Below, piece by piece: positions 32,821-61,278 of a stretch of 64,000 nucleotides of DNA (its first letter is position 1; every line of letters begins with the position of its first letter). Position numbers and translations under genes: made by a program. The stretch is from Eledone cirrhosa (taxonomy: Eukaryota): assembly GCA_964016885.1 (NCBI GenBank), contig OZ024743.1, forward strand, positions 144,646,001-144,710,000, read 5' to 3'. Below the pieces are notes generated by a model. It did not search any database. It worked only from the letters and a program-made list of their open reading frames with translations, and was not told the DNA's origin.

Positions 32821-33030
32821 ATAACGAAGGAAATGTGGTAAGGAACCAGATGGACCATAACGCACCAAAGTACTCAATACTTAGGGTAGTAGAGTGGGTA
32901 ATAGGAACGAGTAGGACCCCGACGGCTGAGCTCAAGCCTTTCGACGGCTAATTCTGGACTAAAATAATTTTAGTCCAGAATTATCCGTCGAAACGACTTG
33001 AGCTCAGCCGTCGGGTCCTACTCGTTCCTA
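32821..33030. mobile_element. Fold-back element family A in (TA)n
   Basis: ~80 bp unique tail plus ~130 bp palindrome; other copies at 33905-34001, 35547-35727, 37283-37373, 40678-40736, 52102-52296, 60649-60846. Confidence 0.85.
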
Positions 33031-33127
33031 TATACATATATATATATATGTGTATATATATATATATATATATATATATACATACATACATATATACATA
33101 TTATTAGAAATGTAAGCTATCGCCGTA

Positions 33128-33345
33128 TTTTGACAAAATACAAAGTGTGTTATATAAATTTTTACATAACCAAGGAAACATACCTTATCAGTTGAATTTT
33201 CCTTGACTATCCAAGGAGAATTCAACTGATAAGGTATGTTTCCTTGGCTATGTCAAAATTTATATAACACACTTTGTATTTTATCTGATGAAAGTGTACC
33301 AAAGTTTTTTGGTACCCTTGAAATATATATAATAGAATAAATATG
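33128..33345 (+). repeat. Fold-back repeat followed by a hammerhead motif (33277-33339)
   Basis: Arms ~33135-33208 and 33213-33283; tattttat-CTGATGA-long stem II-GAAA-TATATA-TA-atagaata. Confidence 0.75.
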
Positions 33346-34574
33346 TTTTTATAAATATAGTTTCCATTTATGTAATATCATTGAATATTTACTCCAGAAC
33401 TTGTCGAGTGCTCTGAATCAGTTATAAACATTTATATTTGTCGGATTTCCAACAAATTAAATATCCCTTCTACTTATATATATATATATATATGTGTGTG
33501 TGTGTATATATATATGTATATATGTATATATATAAATATAAATATATACATATATATATATGTATATATGTATATATATATATATATACATACATATATA
33601 TCTATATATATGTATATATGTATACACACACACACACACACACACATATATATATATATATATATATATATATATATATATATATATATATATATATATA
33701 TATATATATATATATATATACATATATATATATATATATATACATATATACATATATATATATATTTATGTATATATATATATACATATATACATATATA
33801 TACATATATATATACATATATACATATATATATATACATATATACATATATACATATATTATACATATATATATATACATATATAGATATATATATATAT
33901 ATGTTCAGAATATCTAGTCCAGAATATATGTCCAGAATATCTAGTCCAGAATTAGCCGTCGAAACGGCTTGAGCTCAGCCGTCGGGGTCCTACTTGTTCC
34001 TATATATATATATATATATATATATATATATATATATATATATAAAACATTTAAATATAAATTAATATATATGATGAAACACAAATACCAACATATCTGC
34101 ATTTATATTGTAAAAGAAATTTAGTTAGCTAGAATGAAATATACTAATTATAATATTACAGCCTGCCTATATCGATTTAAAATAATAAATCAACAAAGAC
34201 AAACAGTATTGCCAAATGGCCATGATGTTTAGACACATTTAAATTTCAAAATCAAACCTGTTCCGTAGATAAGTTTAAACTTTAAAATCCAAATATGTTT
34301 CGAGATAAATAAGTGTAAGGATATCTTGTCCAGCTCTCTTCAGTAAACATCCTGAAACAAATTGATATGCTTCACTTCTAAATATTTTAAAAGACTGTTT
34401 AACGCACATGGTTTACAGTTTCTAGCTAGCCTCATACCCGTACTGCTAGAAATAACAGCCGTATATATGAGGCTACTATCAGCTCAACCTAAGGAGCAAT
34501 TTTATTATATATATATATATATATATATAGTGACGAAACATAAGTCAATTGCATGAACTCATAATCCTTTATTT

Positions 34575-34630
34575 ACTGCTATATATATTTCGATGATAGC
34601 CATTGAATGGCTATGACCTCATCAGGCAGT
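34575..34630 (-). ncRNA. Hammerhead motif, family C, intact core
   Basis: Reverse complement: actgc-CTGATGA-ggtcATAGCCA(ttcaa)TGGCTATcatc-GAAA-TATATA-TA-gcagt; near-identical copy at 50447-50502, degenerate relatives at 48741-48793 and 63180-63234. Confidence 0.8.
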
Positions 34631-59000: not shown

Positions 59001-59335
59001 GCGCAATTATGCTGCCTATTCTGAGTGAGGTCATGTTGAAATGGAGTGGAAAAGATGGGAAAGATCACTTACCTTACTTCTCGTAGAGGAAGGATGGTTT
59101 GTCCATCCTTTTCACTGCTTGTGGCCTCCTCCGGAAGGATGTCCTTATAAATCCTCCTGGAGAGTGTTTGTCGGAAGTCTCCGATGTCTTTGGGGAATTT
59201 TTGTTTTAGTGTCGTGTCCGTTTTCTGTGTGATGCGAGTGATTTGTATGGAGGTGGTGTGAACTTTTGGGGTGTTGTGTAGTCTTTTTCTGTGATGCTGG
59301 TGTTGTGTTGGATGTAGTGTAATAATTGGTTGTTG
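56006..59335 (-). mobile_element. Tx1-like retrotransposon copy 3, decayed
   Basis: ORF2 start at 59034, RT with SAYADD, GGLG region, 3' end in (TAA)n. Confidence 0.88.
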
Positions 59336-60019
59336 TTCAAATTTAATTGTTTCTACGTTAGGCACAAAGCCAGCAAATACCAGTGTATTACTGGTACTAA
59401 ATTGTTTTGATAATTTTTTGTCTGTGTACAAAGTTTTTTCCACATGCTCTTTTAATACACCAAGGCTTTAATTTAAAATTGGTGGTACACCTACATTACA
59501 TTTTATCTTGGATTTTATAGTATACACTTTATATAAATATGCGTGTATGTGTGTGTGTGTGCATGCGTATGCGCGTGTTTATGTGTGTGTGTGCGCGTGT
59601 GTGTGTATGTGTGTGTGTGTGTCAGGTCGCTCCCGAGCGCTATTGGTATTTTGTAATCCAATACAACAAGTTGCATCCTTAGTATTCAGTAACACAAACG
59701 ACCAGCCACGTGAGATAAACATAAACAAAAAACGTTTTTAGAAAGACTGTAACGAAAATCCTTTTTGAAAAGGCTGCAAACACAGATGAAACCGGCTAAA
59801 GAAAACAAACATAGTTTATCGTAAAATGACTTGCCACATTAATACAGGAACCTTCTAAATAACCAAATGGTTAGTCAGTGTATGGAATACTAGATATATG
59901 CAAGATATCCATAGATAAAAAGCAAAGGAAAAAATGCAAAGGAAAAAGCAAAGGAAAAGTGCTCAATCTAGTACAAGAGAGCTTATTTGGTTTATATTAA
60001 ATTTCATACACTTAATAGA

Positions 60020-60147
60020 TATGCGCGACTTTAGGTTTTAGAATCCAGTTTTGGTTACCACTGTATGGTGGAGTGACAAGTTTTAGAACCGCTAATCTAC
60101 CATACAGTGGTAGCCAAAGCTGGATCCCGAAATCTAAGGTCACACAT
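60020..60147. repeat. ~50 bp-arm imperfect inverted repeat
   Basis: atccagttttggttaccactgtatggtgga / tctaccatacagtggtagccaaagctggat. Confidence 0.75.
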
Positions 60148-61278
60148 GCATGTTAAGTGTATGAACTTTAATACAGTTTATATATATATATGTGTGTGTG
60201 TGTGCGTGCGTGTGTGTGTGTATGTGTGTGTGTTGTGTGTGTGTGTGTGAGAGAGAGAGAGAGATCGTGTTTCTATATATCTTTCTACTAGTAAAAATAA
60301 AGGATAGATAAAAATAATATTGCCTAAAGAATTGATTCCATGACATAGAAGTAATCTGCTCTTCACAGGGAGGATCTGTGGTGATCGAACGACCAGTCAA
60401 ATTGGCAATTGAAATCATGAAATATTCGATTCCCAGCTTTGTCTACGCATGACGTCTCGATAGGTCAACGAATGGTTGACATGCTGAACTTTTTGGCAGT
60501 GACTACAACCCTAAAGCAAGAAAAATGTATGGGGTGCCCGACCTGGAGATAGAGATGATACGAGAGTTGTAACCAAAAAAGTCTATATAATGGAAACAAA
60601 CTTTTCTTCATATGCATATATATATATATATGCATACATTTATATATATATAACAAAGGAATTGTGGTAAGGAACCAGATGGACCATAACGCACCAGAGT
60701 CCTCAATACTTAGGGTAGTAGAGTGGGAAATAGGAAAAACTATGACCCCGACGGCAGAGCTGCAGCCGTTTCGACGGCTATTTCTGAACTCAGAAATAGC
60801 CGTCGAAACGGCCTGAGCTCTGCCGTCGGGGTCAAACTTGTTCCTATATATATATATATATATATATATATATATATATATATATATATATATATATATA
60901 TGTGTACGGCAACACTCATCTTTTTCCATTTCTCCGAGGGTTATAAACCCCACTATCAGGGTAGAAATTTCTTTAGTCTAAAATACGGTGAAAGCTTATA
61001 ATTTCTAATTTCTAATTTCAAACTCGCGCACCGTTTCAAAAACATACTTACATGTTTACGTTTATAATTTGCTTGTTTATATATATATATATATATATAT
61101 ATGTGTGTGTGTGTGTGTGTGTGTGTGCGTGTGTGTGTGTAGGTGTGTGTGTTTATATATACATATGAATGTATGTGTGCGTGTGTGTGTGTGTATACAT
61201 ATGTTTGTATGCTTCACATGTTTGATATGTGTTTGATATCATAAGATTATAATAATATTTCTTAATTTTCTTTGAAAG

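Follow-up and report, generated by a model that had tools for sequence, protein, structure and literature searches.

In canonical endonuclease-positive (EN+) Penelope-like elements (PLEs), a reverse transcriptase (RT) domain followed by a C-terminal GIY-YIG nuclease is the defining architecture, and PLEs have been described as having 5'-truncated copies in inverted orientation, a tail at only one end, and a bias toward (TA)n (PMC8557442). Their integration is still called undefined in the part of that account available to us. According to the available sections of PMC11167929, the protein of an Anolis PLE cuts each of the two strands and extends them, and it initiates reverse transcription at two internal sites, which form the limits of the tail. 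For PLEs of Cercyon, hammerheads have been reported in which U3-A8 replaces C3-G8; helix II is long there, helix I is short, and the loops of helix III are palindromic (PMC4209133, in the portion accessible). Here, we describe seven short elements in a 64,000-nucleotide stretch of the Eledone cirrhosa genome (assembly GCA_964016885.1, contig OZ024743.1, positions 144,646,001 to 144,710,000; hereafter the window, with coordinates counted from its first letter). These elements are very probably 5'-truncated, head-to-head double copies of the last 60 to 140 bases of a PLE in (TA)n. We put at roughly 0.55 the probability that their palindromes are made at insertion by two converging target-primed complementary DNAs (cDNAs) with start sites 80 bases apart.

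Much of what we observe resembles the PLEs covered in the available text of PMC8557442. As in Penelope/Poseidon, Neptune, and Nematis, one open reading frame (ORF) encodes RT and then GIY-YIG, and 5' truncation is heavy. As in canonical EN+ PLEs, there is an inverted 5' copy, a tail at one end, pseudo-long terminal repeat (pseudo-LTR) redundancy, and targeting of microsatellites or (TA)n, and a Cys-rich linker precedes the nuclease as it does in Neptune and Nematis. Unlike the PLEs of that account, in which the tail measures 30 to 40 nucleotides (nt), the tail here is 80 nt long, and the great majority of copies are cut to 60 to 140 nt, and the two arms consequently look like a clean palindrome. 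It is for Naiads, not for elements with a C-terminal nuclease, that the account states a (TA)n preference. In short, 5' truncation, the inverted 5' copy, the one-sided tail, AT-rich or (TA)n targets, and a hammerhead by the start sites are known already for PLEs; new are this family, its motif with A at position 8 (A8), its 80-nt tail, and the huge number of minimal pairs together with the rules that they follow.

Parent element of the window copies

An earlier note on this DNA, made from the sequence alone, had reported seven copies bounded by (TA)n, and all seven were found where it had placed them, each adjoined by (TA)n in the window sequence. Four are near-perfect palindromes in which just one side bears the 80-nt tail, two consist of a lone tail-less arm, and one (37283) joins a tail-less arm to a remnant of the tail (Table 1). 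On the strand with GAAAC..GTC, the parts of a complete copy are, in order, (TA)n, an antisense arm from ATAGGAAC, a variable center, a sense arm (..AGCCGTCGAAACGGCTTGAGCTCAGCCGTC GGGGTC..GTTCCTAT), the tail (TACCCACTC..CCTTCGTTAT), and (AT)n. The arm 32-mer CCGTCGAAACGGCTTGAGCTCAGCCGTCGGGG matched the window nine times at three or fewer mismatches, compared with no match in 100 shuffles. The centers do differ from copy to copy, as had been seen (aaaataatttt, aatt, gtac, gaactc). Variants (cgacag/ctgtcg, ctcgag, cggcag) are also paired between the two arms as described, but they are not copy specific, being subfamily variants common to many genomic copies. Similarly, the short arm stops at TTCCTAT in all window copies, but not always: in the genome sample this holds for 61 of 64 pairs.

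Copies picked for a longer 5' extension led to a locus (L035; sampled loci carry L numbers) at which the sense arm and tail form the 3' end of a longer unit, and a search with 1470 nt of this unit gave 4392 candidates. The upstream flanks of the long copies are homologous and coding, and the copies extend 5' of TAGTCCAG into a unit of ~4 kb. One of them (L118:843-3176) holds a 777-amino acid frame, open from stop to stop, with the RT motifs FDIESYY and YRDDG, a CxCx5Cx5C linker, and the stretch VIYQCNV..AYIGLT..RLYQ. The last lies at residues ~645 to 680 of 777, which places GIY-YIG C-terminal to RT. The frame has 2080 homologs with precomputed GIY-YIG (PF01541), HTH_animal, and DUF8422 annotations; its Atlas relatives carry RVT_1 and GIY-YIG, and also HTH_animal; and the GIY..YIG stretch aligns with the Pfam GIY-YIG hit of homolog P0001 (E=1e-5). 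When the element's own frames were scanned locally against Pfam, no family matched, and PF26215 and PF28514 were not detected by the local copy. Because the RT motifs are followed by a C-terminal GIY-YIG, we assign the source to the EN+ PLEs. This agrees with the origin proposed in the earlier note, although the seven copies, which it had treated as a family of their own, are almost certainly stubs from the tail end of the longer PLE.

The window itself contains no long copy of the parent, and blastn with a full-length copy finds matches by the 3' end only. At least three subfamilies have long parents of their own, each matching just 5' of GAATTAG (e.g., ..CAGTACAGAATTAG for gtac centers), and all three subfamilies share the same truncation zone.

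Terminal inverted repeats, a length of ~200 bp, the TA context, and an unrelated hairpin neighbor at 33128-33290 could also bring to mind a DNA transposon remnant, either a miniature inverted-repeat transposable element (MITE) or a foldback element with a TA target duplication. We regard this origin as scarcely credible. It is at odds with an 80-nt unpaired tail on one side, with variable centers, and with the 5' truncation series, in which single arms and all lengths up to a 4-kb RT-encoding unit share a common 3' end. No transposase partner was found, and target duplications are unreadable inside (TA)n.

Copy number and sampling

The assembly comprises 3.0 Gb and is rich in simple sequence repeats (SSRs). 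It holds 26,582 exact matches to the tail 25-mer, and the two kinds of arm end occur at about 1:1 (13,785 tail-less and 13,444 tailed). A search with copy 52102 yielded 1180 first-look candidates, and all 40 scored matches were full length at 94 to 100% identity. The body was 94 to 98% identical in the 30 closest relatives of this copy, the center was different in most, and arm variants changed in both arms together. The elements are dispersed tail-end PLE stubs present in well over ten thousand copies, and they label a considerable fraction of the (TA)n tracts in this SSR-rich genome. Repeat annotators would mislabel such stubs as MITEs or satellites.

Two samples, anchored on arm ends and chosen to avoid center bias, were drawn: the first 90 genome places of the tail 25-mer and, for the tail-less end, 30 places. 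A single real copy (L035:1200-1646) served as the reference for locating arm ends; on it, the box of a hammerhead-like motif lies at 264, TAGTCCAG at 306, the predicted cut after 347, the CCTAT end at 367, and the tail end at 447. Independent support for the palindromes comes from one contig of public runs that spans the center of the 52102 palindrome. Because this contig crosses the center, the palindromes are not peculiar to the assembly, with the proviso that the runs may include the assembled sample. Separately, public runs of two other organisms gave contigs with the arm and the upstream loop sequence of the long form, and related species therefore carry the family.

Two alternative 3' ends

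Insertions end at either CCUAU|UA or CGUUAU|CUAG, 80 nt apart. The same CGTTAT end was seen in 82 of the 90 tail-anchored copies and the same CCTAT end in 61 of 64 partner arms, and long single copies end at either site. From these ends, two fixed RT start sites on the element RNA, CCUAU and CGUUAU, seem likely. The earlier note had offered another account, in which the tailed first-strand cDNA turns back at hammerhead helix II and serves as its own template, with copying halted where TAT pairs with (TA)n. A copy-back strand would indeed meet CCTAT as its first TAT. However, because long single copies end at CCTAT too, we read this sequence as an RT start site and not as a stop caused by TAT microhomology.

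The full-length 5' ends (L118; L115 in reverse) show (TA)n, an inverted tail-less 3' fragment of 140 to 240 nt, the end of the tail, the 5' untranslated region (UTR), and the ORF, in this order. In both copies, the last 33 to 37 nt of the tail continue unbroken into the 5' UTR and ORF. Since the tail runs straight into the 5' UTR, it is the beginning of the next unit, and the RNA is terminally redundant; in L156, the tail continues into CTAGCTCC, which again is the next unit. Inverted 5'-truncated copies and partial tandems (pseudo-LTR) are thus both present, with head-to-head (-,+) pairs at many junction positions.

The parallel with Poseidon of Anolis carolinensis is close, as far as the available sections of PMC11167929 go. 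In that system, both strands are cleaved and extended in vitro, as the genomic copies here suggest. There are two internal start sites with the tail as the stretch between them, cleavage prefers AT-rich sequence, and a hammerhead lies just upstream of the start sites. A difference is that the Anolis start sites are without target homology, whereas both sites here end in UAU beside (TA)n.

One tail per pair

Among the 90 tail-anchored loci, 66 had a tail-less partner, 1 was double tailed, and 4 had a damaged or odd outer end; the remainder were short singles (12) and long singles (7). The tailed arm was therefore paired with a tail-less one in 66 of 71 pairs. The 30 tail-less-anchored loci comprised 24 with an inverted tailed partner, none with a tail-less partner, 4 long copies, and 2 short singles (by eye); one of the four long copies was paired with a long arm of unknown end. 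Exactly one tail, as is a feature of PLEs, was accordingly found in 66 of 71 and in 24 of 24 sampled pairs. Double-tailed pairs exist at L134 and in L048. Singles make up about one-fifth of each arm-end kind. If the two sites were chosen independently, about a quarter of pairs should have two tails and about a quarter none, compared with the 1 and 0 observed. From these genomic pairs, we infer a strict one-of-each rule.

Arm lengths, centers, and joints

We measured 64 pairs, leaving out L132 and L208, in which an internal arm deletion misled the aligner. The tail-less arm ends at reference positions 303 to 315 in 50 pairs and the tailed arm in 44, in line with the earlier observation that centers cluster at the top of helix II. 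About nine in ten tail-bearing copies stop 3' of the box, mostly at 303 to 313, just 5' of GAAUUAGCC. This stop zone, which recurs in several subfamilies, is located 0 to 10 nt inside loop II, immediately beyond the 3' strand of helix II.

The arms agree within 7 nt in 45 of the 64 pairs. In 13 others, the tailed arm is shorter by at least 14 nt, and the opposite was never seen (two-sided binomial p=0.00024). Two of the 13 (L163 and L180) are deletions within the tailed arm between two AGCCGTCG repeats, which leaves 11:0 (~0.001). The excess length of the tail-less arm in the asymmetric pairs is 14 to 78 nt. Window copy 37283..37374 is a pair of this sort, with the tailed arm cut down to part of the tail, and not an odd internal deletion; the same class occurs at L160, L189, L207, L212, and L223. 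Among 12 long pairs with readable ends, the tail-less arm is longer in 8.

At the joints, 17 pairs share no letters, 20 share 1 to 4, and 8 have 1 or 2 extra letters. In public-run contigs aligned with copy 52102, joints run from the center (52155-52161) to the tailed arm or tail (52198-52261) in all 15 listed of 31. Some junctions recur: ctggact|gaattag in 4 of 64 pairs, and the gtac center in 2 of 64 and in ~7 of 30 close relatives. As for the arms, both carry the same haplotype in 26 of 29 elements typed at six variable sites, against ~0.31 for random pairing, so that the two arms of a copy match, as had been noted. The difference within an element has a median of 1 in 46 nt, compared with a mean of 4.4 between elements; ACAG/CTGT is the commonest haplotype (14 of the 29). 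The center is remade with each insertion. Deletion of the center after insertion, considered as the sole source of the differing centers, is ruled out by the one-sided arm asymmetry.

Several of these results would fit a self-primed cDNA, namely, the symmetry within 7 nt of 45 of 64 pairs, the clustering of centers at the top of helix II, the 26 of 29 elements with identical arm haplotypes, and some folds located exactly on the natural helix III hairpin (L138 and L215). Nevertheless, we now give self-priming little credence. Under it, the tail-less arm could at most equal the tailed arm in length, yet it exceeds the tailed arm by 14 to 78 nt in 11 to 13 of 64 pairs, and in none is the tailed arm the longer by such an amount. 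Tail-less primaries that self-prime should also give pairs with two tail-less arms, which are absent (0 of 24) although tail-less singles exist. The inverted tail-less 3' fragment at the 5' end of full-length copies cannot be a self-copy, and the arms of long pairs differ by hundreds of bases. Self-priming fails on the longer tail-less arms, the missing two-tail-less pairs, and the inverted 3' fragment taken together.

A second possibility is a palindromic nonautonomous master, in which the ~200-bp palindrome is itself transcribed and retro-copied, with apex bases lost in copying or replication. The numbers lend it some appeal: short forms are >100-fold commoner than long ones (26,582 versus 171 exact anchor matches), only 8 of the 90 tail-anchored copies reach past the box, and the junctions just mentioned recur. 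Yet random deletions at the center would shorten either arm equally, and the counts stand at 11 to 13 against 0. Three or more subfamilies have this same hot spot, and upstream of GAATTAG each agrees with a long parent of its own; the ctggact|gaattag junction also appears in a different subfamily (L176); and one-armed copies with the same 5' limit exist. On balance, we think such a master improbable.

Two further features of the arms deserve mention. Internal deletions between short direct repeats (AGCCGTCG..AGCCGTCG or GACGGCT..GACGGCT) occur in L180, L163, L132, L208, and L235, which suggests slippage during copying. In L179, L211, and L234, A or T runs of 8 to 18 nt fill the center, which looks as though letters, untemplated or derived from poly(A), had been added ahead of joining.

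A proposed mechanism of insertion

The reading that we favor, two converging target-primed cDNAs, would proceed as follows. The nuclease would cut both strands of (TA)n, and one 3' end would prime at CCUAU and the other at CGUUAU, on the same RNA or ribonucleoprotein (RNP), with each site used once. Both cDNAs would run toward the 5' end of the RNA, and most would stop in loop II of the hammerhead-like fold. The inner cDNA, with ~60 nt to go, would nearly always reach the end of the template, while the outer cDNA must cross a stretch already copied and would often stop early. The two cDNA 3' ends would then be joined by a template jump or by microhomology, with 0 to 4 shared or 1 to 2 added bases.

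Several points weigh against this proposal. The arm asymmetry is not universal, because the tailed arm is the longer in 4 of the 12 long pairs, two full-length copies among them. The sharp hot spot at 303 to 315 in loop II is not accounted for by the model. The Anolis enzyme in vitro shows no strand difference in start-site use in the text available from PMC11167929, unlike the genomic pairs here with one of each, so that the one-of-each rule is drawn from genomic copies only. Copying one region of the presumed RNA template twice would need strand displacement or template re-use by a PLE RT. As to sampling, the 90 and 30 loci all come from the first 25 Mb of one chromosome, exact anchor matches favor young copies, and arm-end calls on a single reference copy carry errors of a few bases.

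For the stop in loop II, it is possible that the template is a short RNA with that 5' end, that a protein sits on the 5' half of the hammerhead fold, or that the RT pauses there and the pause triggers the jump. More tentatively, and with rather less than an even chance in our estimation, the two 3' ends of the cut (TA)n may dock on two sites of a single PLE RNA or dimeric RNP, once each. If true, one docking event would account at once for the PLE tail, the inverted 5' copy, and the 1:1 rule of tailed and tail-less arms. In that case, the >13,000 mini-palindromes would amount to a naturally produced record, molecule by molecule, of an integration intermediate, and the common loop II stop would point to either a conserved end of the RNA or a protein roadblock on the A8 hammerhead variant.

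Whatever the mechanism, tens of thousands of very short insertions are available in which both junctions and the cDNA joint can be read base by base. They set rules for any model: one start site per arm, a complete arm from the inner site, and joints with 0 to 4 shared bases. The Anolis study, in the sections available of PMC11167929, gives dual-strand extension and two RT start sites, but not how the finished insertion arises.

The arms also invite comparison with retroelements outside the PLEs. In L1 twin priming, both target 3' ends prime on the element RNA, giving an inverted 5' part and a direct 3' part with microhomology, and the two parts cover different stretches of the RNA. Here, by contrast, both arms cover the same stretch, and priming would take place at two defined sites. 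Our literature search found twin priming mentioned only incidentally alongside Penelope-like elements. Like the animal non-LTR retrozymes in the available text of bioRxiv 10.64898/2026.07.22.740005, the stubs are short, noncoding, hammerhead-bearing derivatives of PLE repeats at high copy number. Unlike retrozymes, which form head-to-tail arrays with complete ribozymes, they are dispersed inverted pairs without the 5' half (same source). None of the 120 sampled loci held a tandem array of short units (without a dedicated tandem-repeat scan), and none of the 120 held short copies with the 5' box.

A hammerhead-like motif upstream of the start sites

The earlier note had recognized the 3' half of a hammerhead in the arm, and long copies bear this out. 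In 17 aligned long copies, the arrangement is ..GGAATTACCCC-CTGAGAA-GTTCGGCTATTC-(32-nt loop ending TTTAGTCCA)-GAATTAGCCGTC-GAAAC-GGCT tgagctc AGCC-GTC|GGGGTCC.., with GAAA, helix III, the GUH triplet, and helix I in hammerhead order. The 5' half is present ~75 nt upstream, with CCCC facing GGGG. Its absence from the short copies would follow from both cDNAs stopping 3' of it, and no window copy has a CTGANGA half, as had been noted, since none reaches that position.

The details of the predicted parent fared less well. A parent with CCCC and a box upstream does exist, but the box is CUGAGAA or UUGANAA and not CTGANGA, and the expected CTGANGA-GACGGCTAATTC (pattern CTGANGAGACGGCTAATTC) has no match in the genome. 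The true 5' strand of helix II is GTTCGGCTATTC; GACGGCTAATTCTGG, which had been taken for it, is merely the reverse complement of the other arm. The box context CCCTGAGAAGTTCGGCTATTC has 171 exact genome matches, compared with 1 for the same context with CTGANGA, and the boxes of other subfamilies read UUGAGAA, UUGAUAA, and UUGAAAA. Nearly every typed copy has A at position 8, the exceptions being two isolated ones with G or C; position 3 is C or U, and helix II is kept across subfamilies via C-G, U.G, and U-A changes (by eye).

No Rfam hammerhead family reached the gathering score in the window, and none appeared at E<=10 on the short or the long copy, where matches at this threshold were generic hairpin or miRNA-like only. 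Folding the long copy to minimum energy yields no hammerhead; AGCCG instead pairs with CGGCU across GAAA. Both results speak against a working ribozyme. Judged by its sequence, the motif appears to be a PLE-type hammerhead variant with an A8 core. It shares with the PLE hammerheads in the available portion of PMC4209133 the type I arrangement within the repeat region, a helix II that is long and a helix I that is short (CCCC/GGGG), a palindromic helix III loop, and motif pairs on opposite strands 100 to 700 bp apart. As in Cercyon, an A8 core with U3 is found in several subfamilies here. It differs from those hammerheads in the mismatched C3 and A8 of the commonest subfamily, a helix III of 5 to 6 bp, a loop II of 32 nt, the lack of an Rfam match, and a minimum-energy fold that favors another hairpin (PMC4209133, same portion).

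Arms ending at the predicted cut are rare (2 to 3 of 90 copies; both arms of L120, and L123), a hint that some templates may have self-cleaved. L146 is also among the copies with an arm ending at, or a few bases from, the predicted cut GUC|GGGG. A reading of the short RNA as bearing Pol III A and B boxes was rejected as a poor match by eye.

Features of the window

The coordinates of the copies and of other features are collected in Table 1.

Table 1. Copies of the element and other features in the window (RC, reverse complement)
Position (strand)	Feature	Parts and remarks	Basis
32821..33031 (-)	Palindromic copy, (TA)n on both sides	RC of 80-nt tail (32821-32900), tailed arm, center ..ctggactaaaataattttagtccag.., tail-less arm ending CCTAT at 33031	Sequence; blastn to full-length copy
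33904-33941	Short repeats before single arm	Repeats of that arm's 5' end, AT in between	
33942..34003 (+)	Single tail-less arm	TAGTCCAG..GTTCCTAT	Sequence
35546..35729 (+)	Palindromic copy, ACAG/CTGT subfamily	Tail-less arm, center ggctaattagcc, tailed arm to 35649, tail 35650-35729	Sequence; blastn to full-length copy
37283..37374 (+)	Tail-less arm with tail remnant	Antisense tail-less arm 37283-37340 fused directly to last 34 nt of tail (37341-37374)	
40677..40738 (+)	Single tail-less arm	TAGTCCAG..GTTCCTAT, then (TA)n, then (TG)n	
52102..52297 (+)	Palindromic copy, exemplar	Tail-less arm 52102-52159, tailed arm 52160-52217, tail 52218-52297; center 52159|52160 (ctgt|acag)	
52168..52197 (+)	Hammerhead-like 3' half in arm	Helix II 3' strand AGCCGTC, GAAAC, helix III hairpin GGCT-cgagctc-AGCC, GTC; putative cut after C at 52197	Sequence; parent alignment
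60650..60847 (-)	Palindromic copy, AAATAGCC / CGGCAG subfamily	RC of tail, tailed arm, center ctgaactcag, tail-less arm ending CCTAT at 60847	Sequence; blastn to full-length copy
6352-7851 (+) and 8574-9359 (-)	Frames of other-retroelement fragments inside a GC-richer block	RVT_1 (E=3.8e-8); weak zf-RVT (E=7e-4, below Pfam cut-off)	Pfam
16771-17106 (-)	Probable fragment of a different PLE-like family	Weak match to thumb region of PLE frame, 30% over 126 aa, E=6e-11	Protein match
26-30 kb and 56-60 kb	Further GC-rich blocks	No Pfam hits	Pfam
33128-33290	Unrelated ~160-bp near-perfect hairpin, looks MITE-like	..ttgacaaaatacaaagtgtgttatataaattttt.. and its reverse complement, between TA-rich tracts	

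The short repeats ahead of the first single arm are not peculiar to it. Single arms often start with a short repeat of their own 5' end, AGTCCAGAAT-(AT)n-TAGTCCAGAATTAGCC, as also seen at L034, L037, L040, and L041, and this microduplication resembles the product of slippage, or of renewed priming, between GAAUUA and its (TA)n target.

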